DNA from: Candidatus Shapirobacteria bacterium | GTDB taxonomy: Bacteria; Patescibacteriota; Microgenomatia; UBA12405 | DNA length: 64,000 nt | Reading direction: 5' to 3' | Assembly (NCBI GenBank): GCA_028704635.1 | Contig: JAQWFB010000002.1 | Span: 128,693 to 192,692 of the forward strand | Shown: positions 12,804 to 60,094 of the stretch, in pieces | Position numbering within the stretch: the stretch's first letter is position 1 | Layout of the letters: each line of letters starts with the position of its first letter | The notes under the pieces: model-generated | Databases searched by the model: none | What the model was told of the DNA's origin: nothing | Seen by the model: the letters and a program-made list of their open reading frames with translations, nothing else | Position numbers and translations under genes: made by a program

Positions 12804-12804
12804 A

Positions 12805-14024: not shown

Positions 14025-14046
14025 GGGTTTAAACTTAACATTCAAG

Positions 14047-15075: not shown

Positions 15076-15096
15076 AATTATTTATTAATTTATAAG

Positions 15097-16095: not shown

Positions 16096-16126
16096 TTTTT
16101 AATTTTAATAATTAATTTTTAAGACT

Positions 16127-16184
16127 TCTCCCTTTGTTAAGGGGAGATGTCTCTCGCTACGCGAGAGACAGAGAGGTTTTTTAT
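16127..16184. repeat. Palindromic element, intergenic
   Basis: TCTCCCTTTGTTAAGGGGAGATG + TCTCTCGCTACGCGAGAGA + CAGAGAGGTTTTTTA. Confidence 0.8.
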
Positions 16185-17545: not shown

Positions 17546-17566
17546 ATTAGTTTTACATTAATTAAG

Positions 17567-17616
17567 GCCTCCCTTCTTCAAGGGAGGCTCCCGGATTTAT
17601 CGGGTGGTGGGTTTAG
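17567..17616. repeat. Palindromic element, intergenic
   Basis: GCCTCCCTTCTTCAAGGGAGGCT + CCCGGATTTATCGGGTG + GTGGGTTTAG. Confidence 0.8.
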
Positions 17617-18469: not shown

Positions 18470-18570
18470 TAATTAATTTTACTTTATAATTTAATAAACT
18501 TTTTAACTTGATGATCTAATTTGTGGCGTATTATAACACCCTTTTTTCAAAAAAAACCATTAGTTTTATT

Positions 18571-18598
18571 GTAGGGTCCAGGCATGCCTGGACCCTAA
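18571..18598. repeat. Perfect palindrome GTAGGGTCCAGGCATGCCTGGACCCTAA (family copy 3), in the divergent region between the ATP-grasp operon and the pilin array
   Basis: Exact 26-bp inverted repeat with the same core. Confidence 0.85.
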
Positions 18599-18634
18599 TT
18601 ATTTAAAATATATTTTTCCCACAAAAATAATCAT

Positions 18635-18658: not shown

Positions 18659-18991
18659 ATGAACTCCGTTTTAGCTTTTAATCTCAAAGATATCCAACTC
18701 GGACAAAACTCTAGTACCCTTGGTGGCAGTTATGCCACCACCAGTTCTCTTATTTCCATCATTCTCAAAACTTCTATTACTGTCGCCAGTATTATTTTTC
18801 TTGGTCTTTTGATTTTTGGTGGTATTACCTTTATAATGAACGCAGGTAGTGGTGATCCTAAAAAAGCTGGCCAAGGCCAAGCCGCCATCACCAATGCTTT
18901 AATTGGATTTGCTATTGTGCTTTTAGCCTATACCATCATCCAAATTATTGAAGTTATTACTGGATTAAACATTTTAAATCCAAATTTATAA
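18659..18991 (+). CDS. Small two-TM pilin-like protein (VirB2/TrbC-like topology), paralog 1 of 6
   Basis: 110 aa with TM1, then NAGSGDPKKAGQGQAAITNALIGFAIV, then TM2, and a conserved C-terminal tail ...GLNILNPNL. Confidence 0.6.
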   Translation: MNSVLAFNLKDIQLGQNSSTLGGSYATTSSLISIILKTSITVASIIFLGLLIFGGITFIMNAGSGDPKKAGQGQAAITNALIGFAIVLLAYTIIQIIEVITGLNILNPNL

Positions 18992-18997
18992 TTAATT

Positions 18998-19300
18998 ATG
19001 GCAACCTTTGGAAACATTTCCAACCCCACTTCTTTTGTTAGTGGCCCTCAAGGCTTCTTCGATTTTTTAAGCGCCATTTTTAAAGTTGCTGGCACCGTCG
19101 CTGGTATTTTTTTCATCGTCAAAATTATTCTCGCTGGATTCAAATATCTCAATGCTGGTGGTGACGAAAAGAAAACTGCCCAAGCTTGGGCCACTATCTG
19201 GCAAAGTATGATCGGTTTTGCCATCGTCGCTTCCGCTTTCGTCCTTGCTGGTGTTATTGGTAATTTATTTGGCATTAATATTCTCAATCCCACTCTATGA
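18998..19300 (+). CDS. Two-TM pilin-like protein, paralog 2
   Basis: 100 aa. Has TM1, the loop LNAGGDEKKTAQAW, TM2 and the tail FGINILNPTL. Confidence 0.6.
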   Translation: MATFGNISNPTSFVSGPQGFFDFLSAIFKVAGTVAGIFFIVKIILAGFKYLNAGGDEKKTAQAWATIWQSMIGFAIVASAFVLAGVIGNLFGINILNPTL

Positions 19301-19647
19301 ACCATCTAACTAATCAATTATTAGCGTATACTCTCACCGGTCCTGGAATTGCTGTTACTTCCGGTGCCGATTCCATTTCTACTCTCGAAAAAATTATTAG
19401 TTCTATTATTGGTATCTTAACCATAGTTGGCGTCATCTATTTCACCATCCAAATAATTTTAGCCGGTTTTTCCTTAATCGCTTCCCAGGGTGATCCAAAA
19501 GAATTTCAATCTAGTAAAAAAAGATTAACCACTAATGTTATTGGATTAGTCATTATTATCATTGCCTACGGGCTTGGTGCCCTAATTGCCAGCTTGCTTG
19601 GCATGAATAGTATTTTCGATTTATCAACCGTTTTTCAACCAATATAA
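19297..19647 (+). CDS. Two-TM pilin-like protein, paralog 3
   Basis: 116 aa with TM1, ASQGDPKEFQSSKKRLTTNVIGLVIII and TM2. Overlaps the previous gene by 4 nt. Confidence 0.6.
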   Translation: MNHLTNQLLAYTLTGPGIAVTSGADSISTLEKIISSIIGILTIVGVIYFTIQIILAGFSLIASQGDPKEFQSSKKRLTTNVIGLVIIIIAYGLGALIASLLGMNSIFDLSTVFQPI

Positions 19648-19648
19648 T

Positions 19649-19975
19649 ATGGCTATCACCAATCCTGTCTTAAAAAATAGTTCTAATATCAGCAGTAACC
19701 CCATTGCTTACACTAATAGTGTCATTCAAACCATTATTTCCATCTTTTTTATTTTTGGTCTTATTTATTTCATTTACCACATCGTCCTTTCTGGTTACAA
19801 AATGATTTCTTCCCAAGGAGATCCAAAAAAATACGAAGAAGCTCAACACAGTCTTACTTATGCCGTCATTGGTATCGCTATTGTCTTTTCCATTTTTGCC
19901 TTACTTAAAGTTATTGGTAGTATTTTTGGCATCATCGGCCTAGAAACTTTAACCATTAGTTGGCCATCCCTTTAA
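19649..19975 (+). CDS. Two-TM pilin-like protein, paralog 4
   Basis: 108 aa with TM1, SSQGDPKKYEEAQHSLTYAVIGIAIV and TM2. Confidence 0.6.
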   Translation: MAITNPVLKNSSNISSNPIAYTNSVIQTIISIFFIFGLIYFIYHIVLSGYKMISSQGDPKKYEEAQHSLTYAVIGIAIVFSIFALLKVIGSIFGIIGLETLTISWPSL

Positions 19976-20025
19976 TATTTCAAATTTACTGGTAAAATTA
20001 ATTAATAGTTATTAAATCAAAAAAA

Positions 20026-20406
20026 ATGATCAAAGAAATCAAAAACAAAATTCAATTTGCCGCCATTGCTGCTCCAGTCTACGCTGCTCAAAGTTTAGAA
20101 CTTACTGGTAAAAGTGATAGTTTCACCAATCTCGAAAATTTAACTGTTAATGGTATGGTTTCTGGTGCTATTAGTTTGGTTTTAATTGTGGTTTCATTAG
20201 TTTTCTTCTTTATTCTTGTCATTGGTGGTCTTAAATGGATCACTTCTGGTGGCGACGAAAAGAAAGTTGCTGCCGCTCGTGCTCAAATCACCAATGCCTT
20301 AATTGGCTTAGTTATCGTTTTCGCTGCTTGGGCCATTATGAAACTAATTGGTTCACTCTTCGGTATTGATATTCTTGGAACTTTAACTTTTCCTACTTTC
20401 CAATAA
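20026..20406 (+). CDS. Two-TM pilin-like protein, paralog 5
   Basis: 126 aa with TM1, TSGGDEKKVAAARAQITNALIGLVIVF and TM2. Confidence 0.6.
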   Translation: MIKEIKNKIQFAAIAAPVYAAQSLELTGKSDSFTNLENLTVNGMVSGAISLVLIVVSLVFFFILVIGGLKWITSGGDEKKVAAARAQITNALIGLVIVFAAWAIMKLIGSLFGIDILGTLTFPTFQ

Positions 20407-20425
20407 AATCAAATTAATTTTTGTT

Positions 20426-20457
20426 GTAGGGGCAGACCATTGTGTCTGCCCCTTTTC
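20426..20457 (+). terminator. Intrinsic terminator after pilin gene 5
   Basis: The sequence GTAGGGGCAGACCATTGTGTCTGCCCC forms a GC-rich stem and is followed by TTTT. Confidence 0.6.
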
Positions 20458-20532
20458 GTTTAAATAGGTCTAAATTTGAACCTTAAGGCCAAATTTTGCC
20501 TATTTACACGACCCCGATTTATCGGGGTATAT

Positions 20533-20547
20533 TTTATAGTATAATTA
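20533..20547 (+). promoter_or_regulatory. Second copy of the TTTTATAGTATAATT promoter, upstream of pilin gene 6
   Basis: Identical 15-mer, 5 nt upstream of the ATG at 20552. It is preceded by a CGACCCCGATTTATCGGGGTA hairpin. Confidence 0.55.
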
Positions 20548-20551
20548 ACCT

Positions 20552-20902
20552 ATGAATTTAATCTCAAAAATATTTTCTCCCACCCCTATCTGCGCTGCTG
20601 ATTGGAGTAGTACTTGTGTTAAAGATACTGATGTTGCCACCATTCAAGGTTTCAATTGTCTTTTTGCCAATATTGCCCAAGTTATCATCTATTTTGCTGG
20701 TATTGTCTTTTTTATTATGTTTATTCGTGGCGGCTTCAGTTATTTAACTTCTGGTGGTGACCCAAAAAAAACTGCTAAAGCCAATTCCACTCTTACTCTG
20801 GCTGTTATTGGTTTAGTCGGAGTCATTATTTCCTTTTTAATCATCACCTTCATCGGCGACTTTACCGGTGTCAATGTTACTGAATTCAATATCCCTAATT
20901 AA
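20552..20902 (+). CDS. Two-TM pilin-like protein, paralog 6
   Basis: 116 aa with TM1, LTSGGDPKKTAKANSTLTLAVIGLVGV and TM2. Confidence 0.6.
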   Translation: MNLISKIFSPTPICAADWSSTCVKDTDVATIQGFNCLFANIAQVIIYFAGIVFFIMFIRGGFSYLTSGGDPKKTAKANSTLTLAVIGLVGVIISFLIITFIGDFTGVNVTEFNIPN

Positions 20903-22383
20903 TGAAACGACTTTTAATCGTTTTATTATTTTTCTTATTTTTATTCCCCTCCTTGTCAAGGGAGGGGTCAGGGGTGGGTTTTGTTTATGCCCAATCAACT
21001 ACTATCACTGAAAATCAAACTACTACAACCACTACCCCTCCAGAAGAAAGTTTATTGACTAAATTTTGGAGTTGGATTTCCAAAGTTTTTATTAAAACTG
21101 ATTACACCATCGCCCAACGACCATCCGATGAAATTAATTCTGACATGACCGACTATGATACTGCATCCGACAACCGTAAACACTCTTCCTCTGGTACTCG
21201 TCTTACTGACTCTTCCAGTCAAACTTGTTACAAAGGCAATGTTATCAAAAAAGTTATTTTAGGTGAATACCAAGATTCCGACATTTCTCACATTTGTCCC
21301 GATCCATCAGACTCAAACAAATGTATTGTTTCGTCCGATTCAACTTGTAAACTAATAAAAATTAGTGATCTCGCTCATTATTTTGTTCAAACTCAAAAAC
21401 AATTTTATTGCGCAGGAAATAAATTAACTAATACTGAAAGTAATGTTATCGATAAAGTTAATGAAAAATATTCCAATTCCATTTCCTCTAATGACTTAGA
21501 TTGCTACCAAACTATTTACAACGATTTTTATTTAGTTCCCAAAGAAAGTGTTGAAAATGAAGAAAATTCCAAAAACATAGTTCAAACTCCTATTTCTGCC
21601 GGTGATCAAAAATCAGGTTCCATTAGTGATACTAAAGATCAGCTTAATAAAAATTTTGTTCCCGCTAATCAAAGCTGGGATGGTTTAAGTAGTCTTCGTC
21701 CCCAAAGTTGGGGTAAAGGTTCATCGGGAATTAGTTGGGGTACTAGTGGTGAATTTAACGGTGGTGGTACCAGTTCTGGTACCTGTAATGCCATTGATAG
21801 CCACTGTCGAGGCATGAGCCTTTACGGTGCTCTCGGTCTTTCTCAATCAGGTAAAAATTACGAAGAAATTCTTAATTTTTTTTATGGCAGTATCTCTCTA
21901 AAAACTATTAATACTTCCAATACTAATATTTCTGTTAAAACCGACAGTAACGACGATTGCTCTAGTTATCAACCATTAAATCTTGAAACTTACCTTAGTG
22001 GTCTTGGAGAAATGTCTGATTATTGGGGTGATCCTAGCACCAACGGCTATGAGAGCATGAAAGCTTTAGTAGTTGCTGCCCGTACCTATGCTTATGTTGC
22101 CACCCAAAATTTCACCCAACCAATCTGTAGTAATTCCAATTGTCAAAATTTTCATTGCAGTGTTATCAAAACTAAACCTAATTTAGATCGAGCCATCAAA
22201 GAAACTCAAGGTCAAATTATTGTCGATAGCACTAATCAAACCCCATTTTTAACCGAATACGCTCGTTCATTTTGTGGTCCATCTAAAACTGTTGTTTTTT
22301 CCAACCACACCAATACTTCAGTCAATGGTTATGAATATGAACTCAAAGCTCTCAGCGGCGACTCCCCATTCTGCCTCAATTAA
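20902..22383 (+). CDS. Secreted Cys-rich protein with a C-terminal SpoIID/LytB-like domain (putative cell-wall lytic factor)
   Basis: Has a signal peptide and a Thr-rich linker (TTTITENQTTTTTTPPEE). Near the C-terminus the motifs ESMKALVVAARTYAYVATQN and CQNF match the SpoIID signature. The signal-peptide region contains an in-frame palindromic element (20945-20985). Confidence 0.5.
   Translation: MKRLLIVLLFFLFLFPSLSREGSGVGFVYAQSTTITENQTTTTTTPPEESLLTKFWSWISKVFIKTDYTIAQRPSDEINSDMTDYDTASDNRKHSSSGTRLTDSSSQTCYKGNVIKKVILGEYQDSDISHICPDPSDSNKCIVSSDSTCKLIKISDLAHYFVQTQKQFYCAGNKLTNTESNVIDKVNEKYSNSISSNDLDCYQTIYNDFYLVPKESVENEENSKNIVQTPISAGDQKSGSISDTKDQLNKNFVPANQSWDGLSSLRPQSWGKGSSGISWGTSGEFNGGGTSSGTCNAIDSHCRGMSLYGALGLSQSGKNYEEILNFFYGSISLKTINTSNTNISVKTDSNDDCSSYQPLNLETYLSGLGEMSDYWGDPSTNGYESMKALVVAARTYAYVATQNFTQPICSNSNCQNFHCSVIKTKPNLDRAIKETQGQIIVDSTNQTPFLTEYARSFCGPSKTVVFSNHTNTSVNGYEYELKALSGDSPFCLN
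20945..20985. repeat. Palindromic element inside the SpoIID-like gene (encodes PSLSREGSGVGFV in the signal-peptide region)
   Basis: CCCCTCCTTGTCAAGGGAGGGG + TCAGGGG + TGGGTTTTGTTT. Confidence 0.75.
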
Positions 22384-26336: not shown

Positions 26337-26406
26337 TCCCTCTTTGACTATCACTCCCTTTTCAAGGGAGGGAAATCCCGCATCTGCGGGATGGGTGGGT
26401 TTTATA
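26337..26406. repeat. Palindromic element(s) in the 5' region of the 26344 ORF (encode PFSREGNPASAGWVGF)
   Basis: CCCTCTTTGACTATCACTCCCTTTTCAAGGGAGGGA + AATCCCGCATCTGCGGGAT + GGGTGGGTTTTATAG. Confidence 0.8.
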
Positions 26407-26418
26407 GTACAATTATTT

Positions 26419-29633: not shown

Positions 29634-29912
29634 ATGCCTCAAAGTGACCGACAAATTTTATTAACCAAACTTGAACAAGCCAAAACCCAAATTGAGATTG
29701 GCACCAAATATCGACACACTAAAACCGGTAGCCAATATCTTGTTTTAAATTTAGTTATCCAAGAAGACACCGAAGAAATCCGAGTTATCTATCAAGAACT
29801 CAATCATCAACCTGCCATCATCTGGAGTCGATCATTCGACGGCCCAGACGGCTGGATCATCCCCACCGAAATCAATAGAGAAATGGTTCCCAGATTCACT
29901 AAAATAATTTAA
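29634..29912 (+). CDS. DUF1653-like small protein
   Basis: The YRHTKTGSQYLVLNLVIQEDTEEIRVIYQEL...IWSRSFDG pattern. Confidence 0.45.
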   Translation: MPQSDRQILLTKLEQAKTQIEIGTKYRHTKTGSQYLVLNLVIQEDTEEIRVIYQELNHQPAIIWSRSFDGPDGWIIPTEINREMVPRFTKII

Positions 29913-29925
29913 AAGACGAGATTGT

Positions 29926-30000
29926 AATTTTCCGCGCGCAACATCCGAGGTGCAATGCCGAAGGGCGTGAGCACGGCAAAATTATAATCGAGTCAAAAAA
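29926..30000. repeat. Copy B of the conserved GC-rich element, abutting the ftsH stop codon in a convergent intergenic region
   Basis: Core identical to copy A. Confidence 0.85.
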
Positions 30001-40738: not shown

Positions 40739-42082
40739 ATGGATAATATTGAAAGAATTTGGAAAAATACTCAAGAAGAGTTAAAAATAACTCTTGCTCC
40801 AGCTATCTTTCAAACCTTTGTTCTAAAAACCCAATTAATTAGTCTCGAAAACAATCTTGCCATTATCGGTTGCCCTAATACCTACTCTGTTGATTTTAAT
40901 AAAAAACGCCACTACGACATCATTAAAAACGCCCTCGATAATCAAACTAAAAACGACAACACTCTTAATTTTATTGTCCAAGAAAATTTAAAAACTGATT
41001 TTGACACCACCAACAATACTCCACTTTTTTCCTATTCTCCCAACAGAGCTAATAATTCTTTTCTTCACCCCAAATACACTTTTGAAAACCTAATTGTCGG
41101 CAATAGTAATAACTTTGCCTTCGCTGCTGCTCAAGGTATTATTAAAAACCCCGGTCTTTCTTACAATCCTTTCTTTATTTGGGGTGGAGTAGGGGTTGGA
41201 AAAACTCACCTTATGCAAGCTATCGGCCATGAACTTCTTAAAAATAATCCTGATTTAAAAATAAAATATTTCTCCGCCGAAAATTTTGGCAATGAGTTGG
41301 TCAGTGCCCTTAAAACAAAAACCATGAATCAATTTAAAGAAAAATACCGTAATTTAGACTGTATTCTTGTTGACGATATTCAATTTATTGCCGGTAAAGA
41401 ATATACCCAACAAGAATTTTTTCACACTTTTAATGCTCTCCATATGAACGGTAAACAGGTCATTTTAACCTCCGACCGTAAACCTAGCGAGATTGACCAT
41501 CTTGAAGATCGTCTTGTCTCTCGTTTTATGGGTGGATTAACTGTCGACATCCAGCTTCCCGACTATGAAATGCGTATTGCTATTATCAGCCAAAAAATCG
41601 AAGAAAAGGGGATTAATATTACCCCCGAAGCTGTTGAATTTTTAGCCAACAATATTGAATCAAACATTCGTGAAATTGAAGGTAAGCTTCAACAAATTTC
41701 CGTTCAATCTCTTTCTCAACAAACAGAGGAAATTGATCTTTCTTTTGTTCAAAACTTTTTTAATCCAAACCTACGAACCAACACCTACGAACCAACCCCT
41801 AAATTAAACCCTCGTCATATTATCTCTGTCTGCGCTAAACATTTTAATATTAAAACCAGTGACCTTTGTGGAAAAAGTCGCAAGAAAGAATTAGTCACCG
41901 CTCGTCATATTACCGCCTACTTACTTCTAACCCAAATAAACCTACCTTTAGAAGAAGTTGGCCATCTCCTTGGTGGTCGTGACCACACCAGTATTATGCA
42001 CGCTCGAGACAAAATTCAAAGTGACTTTTCCACTAATCCACAAACCCGACAACTTATCAACCAAATTAAAAACACTTTTTAA
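40739..42082 (+). CDS. dnaA: Chromosomal replication initiator DnaA
   Basis: Walker A (GGVGVGKTHLMQAIG), the sensor motifs and a C-terminal DNA-binding domain (HTSIMHARDKI). Confidence 0.95.
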   Translation: MDNIERIWKNTQEELKITLAPAIFQTFVLKTQLISLENNLAIIGCPNTYSVDFNKKRHYDIIKNALDNQTKNDNTLNFIVQENLKTDFDTTNNTPLFSYSPNRANNSFLHPKYTFENLIVGNSNNFAFAAAQGIIKNPGLSYNPFFIWGGVGVGKTHLMQAIGHELLKNNPDLKIKYFSAENFGNELVSALKTKTMNQFKEKYRNLDCILVDDIQFIAGKEYTQQEFFHTFNALHMNGKQVILTSDRKPSEIDHLEDRLVSRFMGGLTVDIQLPDYEMRIAIISQKIEEKGINITPEAVEFLANNIESNIREIEGKLQQISVQSLSQQTEEIDLSFVQNFFNPNLRTNTYEPTPKLNPRHIISVCAKHFNIKTSDLCGKSRKKELVTARHITAYLLLTQINLPLEEVGHLLGGRDHTSIMHARDKIQSDFSTNPQTRQLINQIKNTF

Positions 42083-42393: not shown

Positions 42394-43512
42394 ATGAAAC
42401 TTTCCCTTTTACAAGAAAATTTAAACACAGCCCTAACCAATGTTTCTCGATTTGTCTCTTCTAAAAATCAACTACCTATATTAAATAATATTTTATTATC
42501 AACCGATAATGGTCGACTTAAACTTTCAGCTACCAACTTAGAATTAAGTATTAATTATTGGATCGGAGCCAAGATCGAAGAAGAGGGGACAATTACTATT
42601 CCTTCAAAAGAAATCACCGAGTTTGTTTCATATTTAACTCCCGGAAAAATCGATCTATCTCTAAAAGGAAACAATCTTTTAAATTTATCTTCATCAAAAA
42701 CCGAGTCAACTTTCACTACTAATCCTTCTACTGATTACCCTGATTTTCCCACTCTCAATCCAGACACCTGTTTTGAACTAGACTTAAATGTTTTAACCCA
42801 AGCCGTTTCCCAAATCGCTTTTTCTGCCGCCACCGACGATACCCGTCCAGTTTTAACTGCCATTCTTTGCCAGTTTACTTCTGATAGTTTAAATTTAGTT
42901 GCCACCGACGGTTTTCGTTTATCTTTTAAAAATATTAAATTAATTAACCCTATTGATTTAAAAACCGACCAAATCACTTTTTTAATTCCTGCCAAAAGCC
43001 TTTTAGAGGTCACTAAACTCGCTAAAACCAACACTAAAATTAAAATAGGCTTAACATCTGATGAACATCAAGTAGTCTTCGTTCTAGACGATGTAGAGTT
43101 GGTCTCTCGACTTATTGAAGGGGAGTATCCCGCCTACCAAAGAATTGTTCCAGAATCTTTTTCCACCAAAGTCTTTCTAAATAAAGACGAATTAACTCAA
43201 GCTGTTAAAATCGCCTCTGTTTTTGCCAAAGAATCAGCCAATATTGTTCGTTTTAATATTAAAACTAATTCTATTGAACTTACTGCTAATGCTCCTCAAA
43301 TTGGCCAAAATAAGGCCACCATTGATGCTAAAATCGAAGGCGAAACCCTGGAAATTGCCTTTAATTATAAATTCTTAATGGATTTTCTCAGTGTTTGCAA
43401 AAGCCAAGAAATTATTATTGAATTAAACGAATCCTTAACCCCAGCCTTTTTTCATGACCAATCAGATAAAGATTTTTCTCACATCATCATGCCTGTCCGT
43501 CTCCAAGACTAA
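42394..43512 (+). CDS. dnaN: DNA polymerase III beta sliding clamp
   Basis: 372 aa with a three-domain beta-clamp architecture, immediately after dnaA. Confidence 0.9.
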   Translation: MKLSLLQENLNTALTNVSRFVSSKNQLPILNNILLSTDNGRLKLSATNLELSINYWIGAKIEEEGTITIPSKEITEFVSYLTPGKIDLSLKGNNLLNLSSSKTESTFTTNPSTDYPDFPTLNPDTCFELDLNVLTQAVSQIAFSAATDDTRPVLTAILCQFTSDSLNLVATDGFRLSFKNIKLINPIDLKTDQITFLIPAKSLLEVTKLAKTNTKIKIGLTSDEHQVVFVLDDVELVSRLIEGEYPAYQRIVPESFSTKVFLNKDELTQAVKIASVFAKESANIVRFNIKTNSIELTANAPQIGQNKATIDAKIEGETLEIAFNYKFLMDFLSVCKSQEIIIELNESLTPAFFHDQSDKDFSHIIMPVRLQD

Positions 43513-43603
43513 TTTATTGCCCGTAAATAATTTTAACAATCAACATTATTACCACCATCAGACCTAAAAAAAATAATATTTGATATTTTTTAATTAAATT
43601 CAT

Positions 43604-44035
43604 TTAGTCTTTAACTCTAAATTCAATTTCATGGTTAGGTGGATTTATATCTTTACTTATTATCCATTTATTAATCAATTCTTTTATTTCTTCCTGATTT
43701 TCACTTTTTGAAACATAAACCACCAAAGTCATATTTTTAATATAATGACTAATTTTAAATCGATCAGTTTCGTAAGGTAGGCTCTCCCATAATGGGTGAG
43801 TTGTTAAATAATCATCAGATTCCTTTTTATTCTGTTTCACTTCTTCTTCATTTGGATTAATTAACTCTTCTCCCAGCTCTGAAGCAGTTTTGGTCGGAAT
43901 CGGAGATATTGTAATTTGATTGATTGTTTCATTTATCTTATTATTCTTATTTTGTTCCCAAAACAATAACCAAAAGATTAAAACTAATAAAACAACACCA
44001 ATTATTATCAATATTATTTTTTTTAAATTTGACAT
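43604..44035 (-). CDS. Small signal-anchored hypothetical protein
   Basis: 143 aa with an N-terminal TM helix. It is the last gene of the minus-strand T4SS-like operon. Confidence 0.45.
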   Translation of the reverse strand: MSNLKKIILIIIGVVLLVLIFWLLFWEQNKNNKINETINQITISPIPTKTASELGEELINPNEEEVKQNKKESDDYLTTHPLWESLPYETDRFKISHYIKNMTLVVYVSKSENQEEIKELINKWIISKDINPPNHEIEFRVKD

Positions 44036-45969
44036 TAGTTACAATTCCATACTATCGCATTTTTTCCTCTAATATAATCATCAATATTATCTCCAGCCAT
44101 ATTTCTAATTCCTCCTCTACCATCCCAATTAGCTTCAGATAATACAAAACTTCTATCTGTCCTTAATACCGACAACACTTGTATATGGTGATAACTTGTT
44201 GGGAAATGAATAAAATCACCGGCACCAGCTTGGGTTGAACTAACTTCAGCACATACATTGTTTCCATACCACCAATATGATCTTCCTATTGTTCCTTGAC
44301 GTAATTTTTGATTAGTCGCTTGAGCAAAAATAATACATTGAAGATTGCCAGAACTAGAGGTTCCGTTGATTCCAATAGAACTGTCTATTGTTTGAATAAA
44401 AAAATTTTTATTAAAACCAGATATTGGTGTCCAATTATTAATACTGTTTTTAACAAACCCCCAATTTCCAGAATTAACATTTTTTACTCCCAAATTATTC
44501 AAATAAAAAACCAAATTACAGGCATTACTTTGATTACAATCCTCAATAAATTGCGGGCTGGATATGTTTGAAGTTAAACTTGAATCATCATAAACACTTT
44601 TGGGTGGCACTAAACTTGAAACCGAATTTCCCAACAACATCTGGTATCCAAATAACCCCCCAAAAACCAAAAGTAATATTGGCCCCACTGCCGCCGCCGA
44701 TATCGCTCCAATTAAAAGAAACGGCAAACCCACCACAAACATCCCACCACCAATAATTGCTCCACCTACTTTTCCAAAATTTTCTTCTAAACCTTTTTTA
44801 ATTCCTATTCCCAGTTTTTCCGCTATTTTACTAACTGCATTTTTTAACATTTTAGCCGCCGCCGCCACCGCTACCACAATCGCCCCTATTCCAGTTGCCG
44901 AAACTGCTGCTGCCCCAGCTGCGGTTACTGCTCCTGCCGCCGCCGCAGTACCAGTCGTTGCTGCTGCTTTAACTCCACCACCTAAAATTCCACTTAAAAC
45001 TGTGGAAATTCCTTTTTGAAATCCTTGTTCCGCTATTACCCCTAAAGAATTTTTTGCAAACTCACCCACTGCCTGATTTCCAATTTTAGTTACCAATTTT
45101 TGACCAGCCCCAGACATTGTCTTGTTTAGCCATCCTCCCGTCAATTTATCCACTCTTCCATACCAACCTAAATAACCTTGAGTTTTAGAAAATAAATTAC
45201 TCACACCTTGATCATTAAAACCAGAAATTACATTCTCAAATGACCGTGTCTCTTTTATATTTCCTGGCAAATTAACGTTTTTTAAAATACCCTTAATTGA
45301 TTCATGTTTATTTTTAATCCCTTTTACTTCTTCCGGCTTTTTAGTTAAAAAATTAGTCACTCCTCTTAAATCAGTCCAAGCATTTTCCAGCTTACCTGGA
45401 CTATATGTTTGGTTATTGGCTTGTAGTGCCTCGTCTTTATGCTCATCAATTATACTTTCACTGAAATATATTTCCGAAACTAATTTACCATATGCCCTCA
45501 CATTATTCGATTCTTCTGCCTTCAAATCGGGATTCAATTTTTTAGTTTCTTCTAATAGTTTTTTTTCAAAAACTTCCTTTTTAAATTCATTTACTTCACC
45601 TATGTTTTCTTCTTTCCACCTATCAATTTCAATTTTTATTTTTTTTACCTCAATTTCCGTTCCTTGCTTGTCTTCCACTATTAAATTTTTAGAAATCACT
45701 TCTATTAGATCTTTTATTTCTTCTCCACTGGTTTTTACTTCTTCTTCTCCAATAATAGATTTAATTTTAGATTCAAGTTCATTTTTTAAATTATCATCTC
45801 CATTCAAATTTTTCGTTATTTTTTCACTTACTTCTACTACTTTCTGTTCAACCGGATTTTTATTTTTTCTGTAATCATCTATATTAAAAACTTTTACACC
45901 ACCAGAAAAATTATCTTGATCAATATCTTGTAAAGCTGAACTTCCGTCCGTTCTATTTGCCATTACCAA
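44035..45969 (-). CDS. Membrane-anchored protein with a C-terminal CHAP-like amidase/peptidase domain (T4SS-associated cell-wall hydrolase, putative)
   Basis: An N-terminal coiled-coil region is followed by a Gly/Ala-rich TM region. The C-terminal 170 aa carry CHAP-like motifs: Cys (NACNLVFYL...SGNW), His (GDFIHF) and SEANWDG. Confidence 0.5.
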   Translation of the reverse strand: MVMANRTDGSSALQDIDQDNFSGGVKVFNIDDYRKNKNPVEQKVVEVSEKITKNLNGDDNLKNELESKIKSIIGEEEVKTSGEEIKDLIEVISKNLIVEDKQGTEIEVKKIKIEIDRWKEENIGEVNEFKKEVFEKKLLEETKKLNPDLKAEESNNVRAYGKLVSEIYFSESIIDEHKDEALQANNQTYSPGKLENAWTDLRGVTNFLTKKPEEVKGIKNKHESIKGILKNVNLPGNIKETRSFENVISGFNDQGVSNLFSKTQGYLGWYGRVDKLTGGWLNKTMSGAGQKLVTKIGNQAVGEFAKNSLGVIAEQGFQKGISTVLSGILGGGVKAAATTGTAAAAGAVTAAGAAAVSATGIGAIVVAVAAAAKMLKNAVSKIAEKLGIGIKKGLEENFGKVGGAIIGGGMFVVGLPFLLIGAISAAAVGPILLLVFGGLFGYQMLLGNSVSSLVPPKSVYDDSSLTSNISSPQFIEDCNQSNACNLVFYLNNLGVKNVNSGNWGFVKNSINNWTPISGFNKNFFIQTIDSSIGINGTSSSGNLQCIIFAQATNQKLRQGTIGRSYWWYGNNVCAEVSSTQAGAGDFIHFPTSYHHIQVLSVLRTDRSFVLSEANWDGRGGIRNMAGDNIDDYIRGKNAIVWNCN

Positions 45970-45981
45970 ATTATATCAACC

Positions 45982-48570
45982 TTAAACAATCCCGTCTCCA
46001 AATAATTTATCATAATCCATTTTATTGTCTTCTTTTTTAATTTCTCCCATATTTTTTTGCCCTCCATTTTCAAGGGAGGGTGACCCCGCAGCTGCGGGGG
46101 CGGGTGGGTTTATTTCAAACACCGGCTGCGGTTTTCTCGCTAATTGAGGTGGCTGAGGTATTCGCTGTTCCTCAGTTTTAATAAAAATTGGTTTTTTTAT
46201 CTCATTTTGGTCAACCGCTACTTCTGGTCTTTTAAATAATACTGATTCAGTTTTCATTTCCGGTTTCACTTCCATCATTTCAATTTTCCTGTCAATAGAA
46301 TTATTTTGTGGCAACACTACTGGAGGTTTTTCATTAACTTCCACTGTTTTTAAATCCAAGACATCAACTTTAGGGGTAAAATTAACAGTTTTAATTTCTG
46401 TAGTTTTTAAAGGTTCCTCTTTATCAAATGGAACTAGTCCTACAGCTGTCGAGACAGAGGGGTTCTGAACTGGTTTTACTTCAATCGGCTTAATTTGAGG
46501 CTCCACTACCGGTTTAACTTGAACCGGAATTTTGTTTTCAATCTCTACCGTTTTTATTTCTGGAATATTAATTTTTGGTGCTACTTCAACTTTTTGCGGT
46601 TCAACAGGTTTATTTATTGGAGGTAATGTCGATGGAAATGTTTTGAAATCTTCCTTGTCTCGGACATAATCCGATCCGCCTGTGGCGGAAAAAGGAGATT
46701 TAGAGGGATTTTGAAATGGTTTCGTTTCTATTGGCTTAATTGGTGGCTTCATTCCATTATTTGGCTTTTGATCACTCAAAAAACTTTGCTTTTTTAAGAT
46801 ATCTTCCGGATTTGAAGTAATCAAATTATGTTCATCCACCGAAGCAATTATTTGAATTGCCACATGATTTTGACCAGCAAAAAAGATTCCTTCACCTTTA
46901 CTTGCTGATAATAATAATTGCTTTTCTCCATCACTCAAATAAAATACCTCACCAATTTGATCAATCGCCGCACTATGCTGTTTTAATAAAATTTGAATTG
47001 AGCTATTAGTCACTATTTCTTTACCATAAGCAGTCCTTAAAAAGTCATCCACGTCCTGAGTTATTGTTGTTACTCCCAAATAATATTTTCTTCCTCTTTT
47101 AACAATTCCTCTCAAAAATTCCGCCGAATCATCATGTTGCATTAAATACCAGGCTTCATCCACCACTAATATTCTTTTTTTCAATGTTTTTTTAACCATT
47201 GTCCAGATATAATCCAAAATAATTTGCATTGCCACTGGTCTTAATGCGTCCTCTAAGTTTCTAATTCCAAAAACCACAAATTTATTCGTTAAATTAACTG
47301 TTGTTTTTTGATTAAAAATCCCCGAAAACGACCCTTTAATATATTTTTCCAGTCTGGCTGCCAACCCTTTGGCCTTTTCATCCTCCATCCCAATCAAAGA
47401 TTTGTATAAATCTTCAATTAATGGTGGTTCTTTGTCTTGAGTTGCTGGATCAGGAGTAATCCCTTTCATTTTATAAGCATCCATCATTGCTCGATCCATA
47501 ATCGATTCTTCAATTGGATCCATCTCACCCAACATCACTTTTAATAATTTATGTAAAGATAAAATTTTAGTATTTAAACCATTTTCACCTTGTTCTTCAG
47601 CTAAAGTTAAATCAAACGGATTAATTTTAGAACCTTCACCATAACCGAAGGCAATATATTGACCGCCAGAATTATCACACAATTCCTTATATTCATTTTC
47701 TGGGTCAATTACAATAATATCTGTCCCCATCATTAATGATCGAAGAACTTCCAATTTAATCAAATAAGACTTACCAGCCCCAGCCATAGCAAAAACCACT
47801 GAGTTATAATTTGGCATTGAAAATCTATCAAAAATTACCAACGATCCATTATGCATATTAATTCCATACATTATTCCCTGATCATCCGATAAATCTGATG
47901 ACACAAAAGGGAAAGTAGTTGCCAAAGAAGTCGTATCCATATTTCGACTAATTGCCAATCTGTCTTGGCAAATCGGCAAAGTTGACACAAACCCATCTTC
48001 CATTTGCAACGTTGCCTTTTTACTTATAATCAACAATGCCCCCAAGGCTGCTTCTAAATTTTTATTCACTCTATCCAATTCCACCACTGAATCCGCTGTT
48101 ATTGTCACATAAAGTCCAAATTGAAAAAATCTTTCTTCACCTTTAACCAAATTAGCTTGTAAATTTAACGCATCCTCTAATTTTGCCTGTGTTGCCGGAT
48201 TAATCAATCGACCCCTTTGAATATCAGTGCTCAGCTCGGCTTCCATTTCTGTAATTTTTCGTCGAAGATCATCTAAAACTTCCTTTCCATCGGTTGGATA
48301 AATAAACATTGAAATATTTAAAGAAGAATCAAAATTAATCAACGATGATAGCCAATTAATTCCTACAAATCTTGGATATGCCGCCACAAATAAAGTTCGA
48401 TAATATTTATTATCAATTCTAATATGATTAAAATCCACTTCTAGAGCCGATGGGGCAATTATATCCTTAGTTGTTACCAACCCTTGAGTAAATTCTCTTT
48501 TATTAGGATCCACTATCGGTGTTGGTTCTGAATTATTTGCTGTTGTATTTTTTTTATTAAAAAATTTCAT
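45982..48570 (-). CDS. VirB4/TrbE-family type IV secretion ATPase with a roughly 260-aa proline-rich C-terminal extension
   Basis: Walker A (VVFAMAGAGKSYLIK), Walker B (RILVVDEAWYLMQ) and overall VirB4 architecture. The tail contains three in-frame palindromic elements. Confidence 0.8.
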   Translation of the reverse strand: MKFFNKKNTTANNSEPTPIVDPNKREFTQGLVTTKDIIAPSALEVDFNHIRIDNKYYRTLFVAAYPRFVGINWLSSLINFDSSLNISMFIYPTDGKEVLDDLRRKITEMEAELSTDIQRGRLINPATQAKLEDALNLQANLVKGEERFFQFGLYVTITADSVVELDRVNKNLEAALGALLIISKKATLQMEDGFVSTLPICQDRLAISRNMDTTSLATTFPFVSSDLSDDQGIMYGINMHNGSLVIFDRFSMPNYNSVVFAMAGAGKSYLIKLEVLRSLMMGTDIIVIDPENEYKELCDNSGGQYIAFGYGEGSKINPFDLTLAEEQGENGLNTKILSLHKLLKVMLGEMDPIEESIMDRAMMDAYKMKGITPDPATQDKEPPLIEDLYKSLIGMEDEKAKGLAARLEKYIKGSFSGIFNQKTTVNLTNKFVVFGIRNLEDALRPVAMQIILDYIWTMVKKTLKKRILVVDEAWYLMQHDDSAEFLRGIVKRGRKYYLGVTTITQDVDDFLRTAYGKEIVTNSSIQILLKQHSAAIDQIGEVFYLSDGEKQLLLSASKGEGIFFAGQNHVAIQIIASVDEHNLITSNPEDILKKQSFLSDQKPNNGMKPPIKPIETKPFQNPSKSPFSATGGSDYVRDKEDFKTFPSTLPPINKPVEPQKVEVAPKINIPEIKTVEIENKIPVQVKPVVEPQIKPIEVKPVQNPSVSTAVGLVPFDKEEPLKTTEIKTVNFTPKVDVLDLKTVEVNEKPPVVLPQNNSIDRKIEMMEVKPEMKTESVLFKRPEVAVDQNEIKKPIFIKTEEQRIPQPPQLARKPQPVFEINPPAPAAAGSPSLENGGQKNMGEIKKEDNKMDYDKLFGDGIV
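46059..46111. repeat. Palindromic element inside the virB4 tail (encodes PAPAAAGSPSLENGG)
   Basis: CCCTCCATTTTCAAGGGAGGGTG + ACCCCGCAGCTGCGGGGG + CGGGTGGGTTTATTTC. Confidence 0.8.
46438..46468. repeat. Partial palindromic element inside the virB4 tail (encodes VQNPSVSTAVGLV)
   Basis: TCCTACAGCTGTCGAGA + CAGAGGGGTTCTGAAC. Confidence 0.65.
46674..46722. repeat. Partial palindromic element inside the virB4 tail (encodes FQNPSKSPFSATGGSD)
   Basis: TCCGCCTGTGGCGGA + AAAAGGAGATTTAGAGGGATTTTGAAATGG. Confidence 0.65.
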
Positions 48571-49274
48571 TACAATTGTCCTCCTGTAACCACCGGTGCT
48601 TGATAATTTACATTCTGAACCTTTTGATTAATGGCCGTTTCTTCATTGTAAGTTCGATAAAAAAGATCAATTATTTCCTTATTACTCAAAGGTTTTATCT
48701 CTAATCCTAATCTTGAAAAAAGCCTTAATAAATGATCTCTTTTTGGCTCCAAATTAGCCTTGGCCTTTTCTAAAATATATTCCTTAGTAAAGGGTAATTC
48801 TTGACTCTTCCCTTGTGATAAAAACATTTTTACTCCTTTAACTCCACCAGTTTTAATTCCCAATTCTAAAGATGAAAAAGTAATAGCAATATAAAATGAT
48901 TTTGATAAAATATCACTTTTTTTAACTGTTTCTTCAATAAATTTTCTGTATTGACTAATTCTCTCTTTAAGACGCGGATTTAATTGTTTTTCTTCCATGT
49001 TCTGTAAATTTTTTAAATAAGAACTTACATCTTTAGCATGTGATTGAATAATAATTTGTATTGGAAAATTTAAAGAATTTATAATTCCTCCATATGCAAA
49101 GACTAATGCCGACTGTTCTGGTTCTGATAATAAATCGAAATTAACCGATGATACGCTTAAAACCGTCGAACAAGACCCATCCTTCATAATCACAATCCCA
49201 TCAATTACATCTTCTATTGGTAAATGTTCCTGGGTACTTCCTTTAATGGCAATTTTTAATGGATCTGTTGACAT
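48570..49274 (-). CDS. Hypothetical soluble protein, T4SS-associated by position
   Basis: 234-aa ORF whose stop/start overlaps virB4. Confidence 0.45.
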   Translation of the reverse strand: MSTDPLKIAIKGSTQEHLPIEDVIDGIVIMKDGSCSTVLSVSSVNFDLLSEPEQSALVFAYGGIINSLNFPIQIIIQSHAKDVSSYLKNLQNMEEKQLNPRLKERISQYRKFIEETVKKSDILSKSFYIAITFSSLELGIKTGGVKGVKMFLSQGKSQELPFTKEYILEKAKANLEPKRDHLLRLFSRLGLEIKPLSNKEIIDLFYRTYNEETAINQKVQNVNYQAPVVTGGQL

Positions 49275-49277
49275 ATT

Positions 49278-50189
49278 TTAATTATTAGAAATAATCCTAA
49301 TTGGTTGAACTATTTGATTTTTTAAATCTATATTAACTCTATCAAAATTATAACCATCTTTCTCTGCAATTATTAGATATCTACCATTTGCTAAAGGTGT
49401 CGTTGTTTTAAACTGACCTAAAGAATTTGTTTTCAACACTCTCGAAGGATTTCCATTTTCATCTTGGACCTCAATAATTACCCCGTCAATTATTTTCCCT
49501 TCGATATTTGTTGCCATACCTACCACCACATTAGGTATTTCCGGAATATCTGGCATTGGAATAGAACCGAAAACCGCCTTTCCTGTTGCTCCTAGCTTTT
49601 CTGTTTTAAGATTCAAATTTGCCTTAGTATCTCTCCAATCTTCCATTTTTATTTCACTTTTTTCATCTGGTTTTTCATCTATTACCGGTTTCTGTTCTAC
49701 GATTACCTTCTTAACCTCAGACTTACTCTCAAGTTCTATATTAATTTTCTTCTTAATTTCTTTCTCTTTTGCTCCAATTACACTTATTTCATCTTTTATT
49801 TTATTTCCCAAAAGATTAGATTTAACCCTATTAACCATCACCATATCCTCTTCATTTTGTTTTATGTTTTTGGTTAAATCTAAATCAAGCCAATTTTTAT
49901 CAGCTTTTCTTCGGTAAATATAAATTGTTGGTGAATAAATTGCTTTCAAAAAAGAAAGAACCCATACCTCTAATGGTCTATCCTCAAAAGGTACAAAAGC
50001 CAAAGCTAATCCACCTCCAGCTAAAAACAACATTAATGGCCATTTAACTAAAATTATTAACTTAGTTGAATTAACCATTATTGCCAAAATTATTCCTACA
50101 GCCGCCTTTAAAAATTGTTTTAATGTCATGTCTCCCACGAGTTTAAATTCATAGGATGTTATTTGTTGTGGAATCGGGTGTTGTTCCAT
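49278..50189 (-). CDS. Membrane protein (two N-terminal TM helices, VirB3/PrgI-like position) with a C-terminal beta-sandwich (carboxypeptidase-regulatory-like) domain
   Basis: 303 aa. The N-terminus is hydrophobic and the C-terminus has GKIIDGVIIEVQDENGNP...GRYLIIAEKDGY. It lies immediately upstream of virB4. Confidence 0.45.
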   Translation of the reverse strand: MEQHPIPQQITSYEFKLVGDMTLKQFLKAAVGIILAIMVNSTKLIILVKWPLMLFLAGGGLALAFVPFEDRPLEVWVLSFLKAIYSPTIYIYRRKADKNWLDLDLTKNIKQNEEDMVMVNRVKSNLLGNKIKDEISVIGAKEKEIKKKINIELESKSEVKKVIVEQKPVIDEKPDEKSEIKMEDWRDTKANLNLKTEKLGATGKAVFGSIPMPDIPEIPNVVVGMATNIEGKIIDGVIIEVQDENGNPSRVLKTNSLGQFKTTTPLANGRYLIIAEKDGYNFDRVNIDLKNQIVQPIRIISNN

Positions 50190-50242
50190 TTCTTAATTCT
50201 ACCAACAAATTTCAACTTGATAAACCTGATGAACTTTAAAAC

Positions 50243-58717: not shown

Positions 58718-59362
58718 TTAAATTCTAGCAATTTCTTTTATCTTTTCAATATTTTTAATTACCATCGTTCTTTTTTTATTATAAAGATATCCTTGCTTTT
58801 GAAATTTCAAAATTTGCAAAGTTACCGTTTCTCGGGTTAATCCGGCCATACTCGCCAATACTCGGTGTGGAGTGTTGAATTTAATTAAAATTTCATTGCC
58901 CTTTTTCTCGCCCACATCCTTTGCGATCAAGCAAATTAAACCTGCCACTTTACCCTCTGCGTCTGCTGCTACAATTTGTCGCCAAGTTATAGATAAATCA
59001 CTTAATTCATCTATTAGTTTCTTATTAACCTCATTTAATATGTTTTCATCTTTTTCAATAAATTTTACAAACTCATTCATCGGTACTGCCCAAAGCTCTA
59101 CTGCCGTTATTGCTTCAACAAAATATCTATTTGGTTTTTTATGAAGACCATTCATTCCTGCACAAAAAAACAATGGTTTTAAGTTTGGTAAACTTGTTTC
59201 CTTTTCACCATTAATTACATAAGCTCTTAAAAACCCACTCTTTTCTATGTAAGCCGTATTCAAATCCTCTCCTGATCTAAACAAAACCTGCCCCTTTTTA
59301 TATTTAATTACCTCAAATTGGCTAAAAAATGACTCTAACTGTTTCTTAATTTTATCGTTCAT
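58718..59362 (-). CDS. Crp/Fnr-family transcriptional regulator
   Basis: Has a cNMP-binding-like beta-roll and a C-terminal HTH (HRVLASMAGLTRETVTLQILKFQKQGYL). Confidence 0.65.
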   Translation of the reverse strand: MNDKIKKQLESFFSQFEVIKYKKGQVLFRSGEDLNTAYIEKSGFLRAYVINGEKETSLPNLKPLFFCAGMNGLHKKPNRYFVEAITAVELWAVPMNEFVKFIEKDENILNEVNKKLIDELSDLSITWRQIVAADAEGKVAGLICLIAKDVGEKKGNEILIKFNTPHRVLASMAGLTRETVTLQILKFQKQGYLYNKKRTMVIKNIEKIKEIARI

Positions 59363-59499
59363 AAAATAAAAACTATTAATTATTAAAAAATTATTAAAAA
59401 TTTATTAAAAGATAACAAAATTCATTATATCACTAAGTTTTACTAATATTTATTACTAATTTTAATAATTTTTTAATAATTAAATAATAATATGGATTT

Positions 59500-60094
59500 A
59501 TGACCAAAGGTATGGAGTTTATTAATCCAAATCTAAATTTAGATCTACCACCAAAACCAGATATTTTTATCCCAATTTTAAAAGCCGCCGATAAATTAAA
59601 AGAAAGAATAGATAAAGCCGAGCAAGAAAGTGTGGTTGATTCTTTAACCGGTTGTTACAATCGTAACTTTTTTGAAAAATTCAAACAAGAACATTTTGAT
59701 CCTAATCGCGACAACAATAGAATCGGCTTAGTCTTTGTTGATGTCAATAATTTAAAAATCATTAATGACACTCAAGGCCACGAAGCAGGTGACACTTTAA
59801 TTAAAAATACGGCTAATTTTTTGAAATCAAATTTTAGAAAAGAAGATCTAATTATTCGTCTTGGCGGTGATGAATTTATAGTTATTTGTCGCAATTATGA
59901 CAATAGTTCTAATTTTGAAGAAAAACTTCTTTACAAAATAACAGAAAAACTAGCCGTTAATCCAAATAAAAAACCTTGCTTTTGGAGTTGCTGTTTACGA
60001 TAGAAATCAAGATTTTTCTAATTTAGATAAAACTAAAGATCGTGCCGACACCCAAATGTATCAAAATAAAAGAGAGATGAAAGCTGGAAAATAA
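59500..60094 (+). pseudogene. GGDEF-domain diguanylate cyclase interrupted by a +1 frameshift in an A6 run (59968-59973)
   Basis: Frame 1 encodes DSLTGCYNRNFF...RLGGDEFIVIC and then stops at 60001. The next frame continues ...LAFGVAVYDRNQDFSNLDKTKDRADTQMYQNKREMKAGK*, which is the typical GGDEF C-terminus. Confidence 0.6.

Follow-up and report, generated by a model that had tools for sequence, protein, structure and literature searches.

The 64-kb stretch of DNA examined here (hereafter the window) belongs to a Candidatus Shapirobacteria (Microgenomatia) contig of at least 193 kb and encodes a type IV secretion system (T4SS). This system is in all likelihood a chromosomal, non-conjugative T4SS of the Patescibacteria type, split into two loci. 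A preliminary description of the sequence had proposed a monoderm-type T4SS that is probably not a conjugative element, and this proposal is supported by the component parts, by synteny and by the lack of a coupling protein and a relaxase in the window. The first locus is a five-gene operon transcribed on the minus strand from 50189 to 43604, of which all five previously described open reading frames (ORFs) were recovered. The second comprises pilins, a SpoIID-like protein and a candidate VirB6. The two loci lie on either side of dnaA and dnaN, about 20 kb apart, the pilin array being located ~23 kb from virB4 rather than adjacent to it.

49278..50189, minus strand: PrgI/VirB3-like membrane protein, 303 aa (Pfam PrgI)
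48570..49274, minus strand: TrsD-like protein, 234 aa (NCBIfam TrsD, E=2.7e-8), overlapping virB4 by 1 nt
45982..48570, minus strand: VirB4 ATPase, 862 aa (NF045971 and P-loop_TraG)
44035-45969, minus strand: membrane protein with a C-terminal hydrolase domain, 644 aa, fourth gene of the operon
43604..44035, minus strand: small protein with an N-terminal membrane anchor, 143 aa, downstream of the hydrolase
18659..20902, plus strand: array of six VirB2/TrbC-type T4SS pilin genes (Pfam T4SS_pilin)
18659-18991, plus strand: pilin gene 1
18998-19300, plus strand: pilin gene 2
19297-19647, plus strand: pilin gene 3
19649-19975, plus strand: pilin gene 4
20026-20406, plus strand: pilin gene 5
20552-20902, plus strand: pilin gene 6
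20902..22383, plus strand: secreted SpoIID-like protein, 493 aa
22429..23997, plus strand: polytopic membrane protein, 522 aa, candidate VirB6 from its predicted fold
40739-42082, plus strand: dnaA, context gene
42394-43512, plus strand: dnaN, context gene

Components of the two loci

Pfam or NCBIfam was searched with nearly every plausible window ORF from 100 aa upwards, dnaA, dnaN, rnpA and four small ORFs (108-152 aa) being read by eye only. The 862-aa product of the virB4-like gene matches the NCBIfam model NF045971, 'VirB4-like conjugal transfer ATPase, CD1110 family' (382 bits, cut-off 325), as well as Pfam P-loop_TraG (1e-30), and exhibits a Walker A motif, AMAGAGKS, at residue 261. Additional VirB4/TraC models match this ATPase, while the HerA (DUF87) hit is restricted to a partial P-loop. 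An FtsK/HerA-like identity was rejected since the VirB4 models score far higher, above a curated cut-off, and the protein classifies as a VirB4 of the CD1110 family, MPF-FATA type, in agreement with the preliminary description. The VirB4 core spans approximately residues 1-600 and is followed by a Pro/Lys/Val-rich tail of ~260-290 residues (about 45982-46770), which is present in Shapirobacteria, WWE3 and Dojkabacteria and missing in Saccharimonadia, where VirB4 comprises ~640 residues. This tail holds a GC-rich double-hairpin repeat at 46049-46113, and a search for tandem repeats within it returned none. Short DNA repeats encoding 'QNPSVS' are common to the tail (46451, 46697) and to an unrelated 1016-aa DUF4012 protein (34427).

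Directly upstream of virB4, the 234-aa ORF initially described as a soluble protein stands as an ORF, with a corrected identity. Within the CD1110 VirB4 model, its product aligns with positions 3-122 and that of the 862-aa ORF with positions 179-734; the two ORFs thus tile a full-length VirB4, which makes the TrsD-like protein the detached VirB4 N-terminal domain. Regarding the 303-aa protein, its hit with Pfam PrgI covers the full model (E=1.4e-5, 26.0 bits for a cut-off of 27), and a PrgI match is found in all 16 of its orthologues, with a best E-value of 7.7e-12, which bears out the VirB3/PrgI-like position assigned to it. The protein possesses two N-terminal membrane helices followed by a C-terminal CarboxypepD_reg-like β-sandwich, the latter being matched in 8 of the 16 orthologues. 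The operon ORFs are packed tightly, either overlapping by 1 nt or separated by 4-12 nt. A promoter-like site (50196..50223, minus strand; TTATCA-16-TAGAAT with TG) immediately precedes the operon and is a consensus match only: the promoter and terminator scan did not rise above chance, promoter-like sites being not enriched as compared with shuffled sequence.

In the second locus, the pilin array is confirmed by Pfam T4SS_pilin matches to all six genes, of which five reach or exceed the cut-off; the third gene falls just under it and also returns a near-cut-off TrbC/VirB2 match. The pilins display a helix-GGDPKK-helix layout, and the paralogues are 26-35% identical to the first one. The ensuing secreted protein had been described as SpoIID-like, and indeed contains a Pfam SpoIID domain (36 bits, cut-off 23), also found in its orthologue in the Microgenomatia genome L082, and matches the NCBIfam SpoIID_LytB domain with an E-value of 1.9e-15 (57.5 bits for a cut-off of 83.3). 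From these domain matches, it is a candidate glycan-strand-cleaving enzyme that may play the role of VirB1.

The 522-aa protein that follows is polytopic, as described, and its likeness to VirB6 is moderately supported. It belongs to a family of at least 788 homologues, essentially none of which has a Pfam domain. A Foldseek search with its AlphaFold model (predicted local distance difference test score, pLDDT, of 72) against 350,542 PDB chains returns, as its top seven albeit weak hits, chains of the R388 TrwJ/VirB5-TrwI/VirB6 stalk complex; the matched chains are unlabelled in the output, and we take them to be TrwI/VirB6 from their modelled length. Moreover, hhalign relates the 522-aa protein to a polytopic protein encoded in a Saccharimonadia T4SS cluster (81% probability, E=1.2e-5, with motifs in common), and to a second Saccharimonadia polytopic protein with a probability of only 25%. 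If the assignment is correct, it provides a testable lead for the poorly studied Microgenomatia, namely a VirB6 candidate whose gene accompanies the pilin genes and not virB4.

Several neighbouring genes accompany this locus. On the minus strand, head-to-head with the pilin array, positions 14170-18469 encode three RimK-type ATP-grasp proteins, one of which carries a Zn-protease/aspartyl-protease-like tail, and a 7TM_transglut membrane protein. This arrangement is kept in the Microgenomatia genomes L081 and L082, and could conceivably represent a peptide-modifying system with a link to the pilins. On the other side, a 752-aa protein (24063-26321, minus strand) and a DUF6909 protein (26344-28110, plus strand) are conserved directly after the VirB6-like gene in Microgenomatia. 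The homologues of the 752-aa protein, none of which has a Pfam domain, come mostly from Shapirobacteria and their relatives; one of them, encoded on a 193-kb contig of an NCBI Shapirobacteria MAG, is 100% identical to it, whereas the single-cluster Saccharimonadia loci do not encode the protein. It was considered as a hidden type IV coupling protein (T4CP) or relaxase and rejected, as it has no Walker A motif, no family match and no PDB relative.

The hydrolase and its exchangeable cassette

The fourth gene of the operon encodes a membrane-anchored protein reported in the preliminary description as a CHAP-like cell-wall hydrolase. Family profile and predicted fold agree with this assignment, with the correction that the CHAP domain is divergent and is one of at least six alternative modules carried by the same scaffold. 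The protein and its surroundings can be divided as follows.

44605..45969, minus strand: N-terminal scaffold, residues 1-455, conserved among relatives
44038..44604, minus strand: divergent CHAP-type (papain-fold) peptidoglycan hydrolase domain, residues 456-644
43519..44602, no strand assigned: exchangeable cassette of ~1.1 kb, catalytic domain and small gene, delimited by the break in DNA identity

The scaffold is composed of a charged soluble part, Gly/Ala-rich membrane segments and an 'SSLVPP' junction, and has no Pfam relative, nor any PDB relative by sequence or profile search. The whole 644-aa protein matches Pfam CHAP at E=0.056 (15.8 bits), under the cut-off of 26. Residues 456-644 have 22 relatives among 1.84 billion cluster representatives, and the family alignment exhibits an invariant Q-C...H...N signature (Cys545, His595 and Asn614) together with three further invariant cysteines. 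Pfam CHAP matches 11 of 17 family members (best 4.8e-6), and the family profile reports the CHAP proteins 5t1q and 2k3a as its top PDB hits. The AlphaFold model of the domain (pLDDT 83.8) returns Foldseek top 20 hits that are nearly all CHAP domains, mostly from phage endolysins (probability 0.9-0.98, E at least 0.015). As judged from these profile and model comparisons, the hydrolase C-terminus is predicted to be a rare, divergent CHAP domain (clan CA papain fold, PF05257).

Among 73 homologues that have the first ~455 residues in common, the precomputed domains assign to the C-terminus an NlpC/P60 domain in 35, VanY in 8, M23 in 7, Peptidase_C39_2 (C39-like) in 6 and M15_4 in 2, the domain being not recorded in the remaining 15. 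The scaffold is 88-96% identical in the homologues P0001-P0007 despite their unrelated C-termini. Across Shapirobacteria, the last membrane segment closes with a conserved '(V/I)SS(L/I)VPP' motif and the switch comes directly behind it, a toxin-like layout in which a variable C-terminal domain lies beyond a conserved junction. The DNA of the two nearest genomes (L001 and L002) is ~84-88% identical to that of the window on both sides; this identity breaks off at 44603 and is recovered from 43518 on, shortly beyond the dnaN stop (43512). The exchanged tract therefore consists of the catalytic domain and the 143-aa gene. As for the origin of the hydrolase, the NlpC/P60 part of the family profile matches hydrolases of Tn916/CTn conjugative transposons, which fits descent from the VirB1-like hydrolase of MPF-FATA systems.

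The 143-aa protein possesses the N-terminal membrane anchor that had been noted, and does not itself return any family match. Members of its family are found downstream of the hydrolase in Shapirobacteria loci, and the small proteins of all these loci are homologous, with a common ~65-aa C-terminal domain bearing an LPYetd.F...W motif. Profile searches of the family against Pfam and PDB report no hit, except for one member that matches SpoIIIAH at 1.7e-5. A VirB8-like identity is not supported, the folded part of ~65 residues being too small for an NTF2-like domain. Likewise, the common C-terminal domain rules out a classical immunity protein that would be unrelated from one cassette type to another. 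In partial Mantel tests, small-protein similarity correlates with that of the catalytic domain when the scaffold is controlled for (r=0.31, p=0.012), and not with that of the scaffold given the catalytic domain (r=0.14, p=0.18). The small protein thus tracks the catalytic-domain type, which could reflect functional coupling or mere linkage.

Taken at face value, these patterns suggest that the catalytic module of a tethered hydrolase is swapped by recombination among close relatives, together with the small gene. Since the housekeeping genes of these relatives are nearly identical, their own wall should be the same, and a swapped bond specificity suggests a variable external substrate, most plausibly the host wall rather than the own wall. 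It is a tentative possibility that the hydrolase is a host-range determinant, its module and partner protein being exchanged to match host peptidoglycan chemistry. If so, the host that can be breached by each of these otherwise near-identical epibionts would be predictable from its cassette type, and module exchange that mirrors host wall diversity would provide a sequence-based handle on host specificity in uncultured organisms.

Genomic setting, related systems and competing explanations

To compare the loci with those of other genomes, the GTDB species representatives were scanned with the window VirB4, and the window proteins were searched by tblastn in the best 80 virB4 loci. All 80 of these best loci belong to Patescibacteria, with 46-84% identity to the window VirB4, and the closest relatives among them are Candidatus Shapirobacteria (84% and 82%). 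Many records of Shapirobacteria-type loci (L001, L003, L005 and others) are titled 'uncultured Gammaproteobacteria bacterium', which looks like a taxonomic mislabel. The order prgI-trsD-virB4 is collinear in Shapirobacteria, WWE3, Dojkabacteria and Saccharimonadia wherever the locus reaches far enough upstream, prgI being missed by tblastn in five Saccharimonadia and one other locus. Around 20 Shapirobacteria genomes display the same succession of trxB, a glycosyltransferase (GT4), a 5'-3' exonuclease, the T4SS operon, dnaN-dnaA and rnpA-yidC, and in WWE3 the virB4 locus adjoins dnaN. The second locus is kept in L081 and L082, where it comprises, in order, the three RimK-type ATP-grasp genes and 7TM_transglut, six or seven pilins, an optional SLT, the SpoIID-like protein, the polytopic protein, a ~750-800-aa protein without assigned function, DUF6909 and FtsH. 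As both loci are syntenic with housekeeping genes in many related genomes, they represent a core feature and not a recent island, as had been argued initially.

The comparison with Saccharibacteria-type loci that the preliminary description had suggested reveals the same parts in one place: in Saccharimonadia, the pilin array, polytopic protein, PrgI, TrsD, VirB4 and large hydrolases (Amidase_2; lysozyme+M23+GDSL) form a single cluster, which links the two window loci functionally. The window differs from this arrangement in that its pilins, SpoIID-like and VirB6-like proteins are encoded ~20 kb off, on the other side of dnaA, and in that its VirB4 carries the low-complexity tail of ~260-290 residues. 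In contrast with the locus L068, which encodes Amidase_2 and lysozyme/M23/GDSL proteins, the window hydrolase is a single scaffold with an exchangeable module.

Much of this organization has been reported for other Patescibacteria. In Southlakia epibionticum, the T4SS cluster SEML1_0006-0019, which possesses a pilin array and is devoid of any recognisable coupling protein or relaxase, is essential for epibiotic growth as determined by transposon sequencing (Wang et al. 2023, PMC10633639). In a survey of 3,035 genomes, the Patescibacteria VirB4 clade is nested within MPF-FATA, TrsD is the most abundant VirB4 partner and PrgI/VirB3 is also found, arrays of 2-11 VirB2 genes occur especially in Microgenomatia and Saccharimonadia, dnaA/dnaN lie near virB4 in Microgenomatia, and relaxases are rare (Quinonero-Coronel et al. 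2025, PMC12102498). The survey further reports that, in Microgenomatia, VirB6 is scarce and VirB3 is rarely linked to virB4, and does not mention NlpC, CHAP, SpoIID or polymorphism; a 2025 review repeats its points (PMC12857230). The basic picture (dnaA/dnaN adjacency, pilin arrays and missing relaxase) is thus already published, in 2023 and 2025. The exchange of the hydrolase cassette appears to be a modest addition to it, as does the 522-aa family as a candidate for the VirB6 that the survey found scarce in Microgenomatia. Few machines are known on which the epibiotic lifestyle of the Patescibacteria, a very large uncultured radiation, depends. The T4SS is among them, and its function has been called 'completely unknown', with effector delivery or nucleic-acid uptake being proposed (PMC11665869).

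Like the published Patescibacteria systems, the window T4SS combines an MPF-FATA-related VirB4 with TrsD and PrgI/VirB3 directly upstream, six divergent VirB2-like pilins in an array and wall hydrolases downstream of virB4, and it stands beside dnaN/dnaA with no relaxase or T4CP nearby. In contrast to the Microgenomatia of the survey, PrgI is always linked to virB4 in these Shapirobacteria and a VirB6 candidate is present. It also resembles the monoderm MPF-FATA systems, in that its VirB4 belongs to the CD1110 family (Clostridioides CTn2/CD1110), TrsD recalls pGO1 Trs and PrgI recalls pCF10, and a membrane-anchored VirB1-like hydrolase is found as in these systems and in pIP501 Tra; NlpC/P60 and CHAP modules likewise occur in Tn916 Orf14-type, PrgK and TraG proteins. 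Unlike them, the window system is chromosomally fixed, is devoid of relaxase, T4CP, oriT and integrase in the window, and has no homologue there of the VirB8-like PrgL/TraM; conversely, it possesses VirB2-type pilins, which the monoderm conjugation systems do not have (PMC12102498, PMC12857230).

From these homologies, a working model of the machine can be proposed. As homology shows, VirB4, its detached TrsD-like N-terminal domain and the PrgI/VirB3-like anchor form a membrane ATPase platform; the VirB6-like 522-aa protein, with the moderate support described above, would form a membrane channel or base. The six divergent VirB2-type pilins are homologous to pilus subunits and would polymerize into a pilus or conduit. 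Peptidoglycan would be opened by two wall-cutting enzymes, the SpoIID-like glycan-strand enzyme encoded with the pilins and the membrane-tethered CHAP-type amidase/endopeptidase encoded beside virB4. The absence of a nearby coupling protein and relaxase suggests that the machine is not a DNA-conjugation device; it would most likely serve for exchanges that depend on contact with a host bacterium, whether to export proteins or to acquire nutrients. The exchange of the catalytic module and small anchored protein among close relatives would fit a variable substrate such as the host wall.

Several points weigh against parts of this reading. The functional proposal rests on parts lists and on one cultivated relative from another class, and we know of no cultured Shapirobacteria. 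The 522-aa protein has no sequence or profile match in Pfam, NCBIfam or PDB, including to VirB6/TrbL; its R388 stalk-complex hits are of low significance (E 6.5e-3 to 0.6, TM 0.3-0.4, root-mean-square deviation ~11 Å), and no VirB8-like component was identified in the window. A T4CP or relaxase could lie outside the window, which covers only 64 kb of the contig, and VirD4 homologues are located far from virB4 in many Patescibacteria according to the literature. Simple linkage could explain why the small gene is exchanged together with the catalytic domain. Finally, an origin at dnaA is not backed by the GC skew, so that the published argument of origin-proximal gene dosage finds no support in the window.

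This last point bears on the claim that the loci flank the origin, which holds only in part. The dnaA-dnaN spacer does contain the sole two perfect DnaA boxes of the window, at 42115 and 42127, and dnaA, dnaN and these boxes do lie between the two loci; the expected change in GC-skew sign, in contrast, is not observed there. The plus-strand skew is strongly negative from position 1 to ~59.4 kb irrespective of gene strand, without any switch at dnaA, and third-codon-position skew is ~ -0.6 on both sides of this gene. A change of sign is seen only close to an AT-rich spacer (59362-59500) with a perfect 24-nt inverted repeat, beyond which GC drops to 26-30%. Shapirobacteria relatives (L002, L004, L012, L018 and L079) also exhibit a single-sign skew across dnaA. 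This single-sign skew and the uniform orientation of the double-hairpin repeats described below place both T4SS loci on one replichore by these measures. dnaA may not mark the skew-defined origin in this lineage; proximity to dnaA is then not the same as proximity to the origin, which weakens the published gene-dosage argument.

Could the two loci instead belong to a conventional or decaying integrative conjugative element, with relaxase, coupling protein and integrase outside the window? VirB4, TrsD, PrgI and the hydrolase do derive from MPF-FATA conjugation modules (PMC12102498), and the inspection was limited to 64 kb. We nevertheless regard this as very improbable, given that the same housekeeping flanks recur in ~20 Shapirobacteria species-level genomes, that the locus is syntenic in every related genome examined and that it lies next to dnaN in WWE3. 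The profile scan, which covered nearly all of the larger ORFs, found no relaxase, T4CP or integrase in the window, its remaining ORFs matching only housekeeping or unknown families, and Walker A motifs are restricted to RadA, FtsH, DnaA and VirB4, in line with the earlier claim that no VirD4-type coupling protein or relaxase is present in the 64 kb. Neither an integrase nor an att-like context, which the preliminary description had named as signs of a conventional element, was found in the window; all tRNA genes are >29 kb away from the operon, the base composition of which is that of its surroundings. In addition, relaxases occur in only 103 of 3,035 Patescibacteria genomes, rarely near virB4 (PMC12102498). 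A conjugative island was discarded on the grounds of synteny and of the lack of relaxase, T4CP and integrase in the window. The missing relaxase and T4CP are also consistent with a DNA-uptake machine, like Helicobacter ComB or archaeal Ced, that would import host DNA as a nucleotide source, an idea raised for Saccharibacteria, which cannot make nucleotides (PMC11665869). The window VirB4 matches CedB/CedD models, yet weakly (CedB, 50 bits for a cut-off of 700), and no ComB-type or Ced-type partner genes are present in the window. There is no direct evidence for uptake in any Patescibacterium, and the title of a 2026 preprint suggests that host RNA feeds a related lineage by a different route, all of which makes DNA uptake improbable.

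The exchangeable cassette calls for weighing a further explanation, in which the hydrolase is a polymorphic antibacterial effector, the small downstream protein its cognate immunity protein or inhibitor, and the T4SS chiefly a weapon or lysis device directed at host cells or neighbours, in the manner of the bacteria-killing Xanthomonas T4SS effectors or of T6SS/T7SS amidase-immunity pairs. The layout is that of polymorphic toxin loci (Xanthomonas X-T4SS, T6SS Tae/Tsi, CdiA-CT/CdiI): a constant anchor and a sharp junction motif, 'SSLVPP', are followed by a variable peptidoglycan-targeting C-terminus, here of at least six unrelated hydrolase types in close relatives, and by a small downstream gene that is co-exchanged, the exchanged tract being exactly the catalytic domain and this gene, and the small protein following the former in the Mantel tests. 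Toxins of unrelated folds normally have immunity proteins that are unrelated as well, whereas the small proteins downstream of all hydrolase types form one homologous family, and linkage alone could account for their co-variation. Unlike the products of polymorphic toxin loci, the hydrolase carries membrane segments of its own and gives the impression of a tethered rather than a secreted protein, and the window holds neither a T4CP-recognition domain nor a T4CP. Furthermore, monoderm conjugative T4SSs routinely possess a membrane-anchored VirB1-like hydrolase at this position, and the commonest C-terminal domain (NlpC/P60) matches Tn916/CTn hydrolases. We consider the effector explanation unlikely, though somewhat less so than DNA uptake, and retain that of a chromosomal T4SS with a tethered wall hydrolase.

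Repeats and the rRNA region

Two families of repeats are dispersed in the window. The first is a GC-rich double-hairpin repeat of ~40-65 nt, roughly CTCCCTTGTCAAGGGAG followed by GTGCCCGCAGGGC... and GGGTTT, for which folding confirms two adjacent stem-loops. The copies found are all in one orientation on the plus strand, regardless of gene strand. In-frame copies reside inside the ORFs of RadA, a GH18 protein, the SpoIID-like protein, the DUF4012 protein, Fpg and the VirB4 tail. These elements recall Rickettsia palindromic elements, and the intergenic copies look like bidirectional terminators. The second family is a near-perfect palindrome of 28-33 nt, TGTAGGGTACAGGCATGCCTGTACCCTAC, found in three intergenic spacers, one of which immediately precedes the first pilin gene.

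1188, 5521, 12754, 13812, 16129, 17569, 20949, 26354 and others, plus orientation: double-hairpin repeats
32362, 34391, 35484, 39021, 40568, 46049-46113 and 54492, plus orientation: double-hairpin repeats, continued
4612-4649, 6922-6958 and 18563-18603: copies of the TGTAGGGTACAGGCATGCCTGTACCCTAC palindrome

A 106-nt direct repeat, 85% identical between its two copies (8198-8303 and 29901-30006, 21.7 kb apart), occupies the spacer between the 5S rRNA and S1 genes and a spacer next to ftsH. The rRNA region (8314-14120) is itself unusual, and no 16S gene was found in the 64-kb window. The region comprises a 5S gene (8314-8430), a 23S gene (8626-11590), tRNA-Ala (11764-11838), a DedA/VTT gene (12093-12734), a GH18-like gene (12805-13950) and tRNA-Ile (14046-14120).

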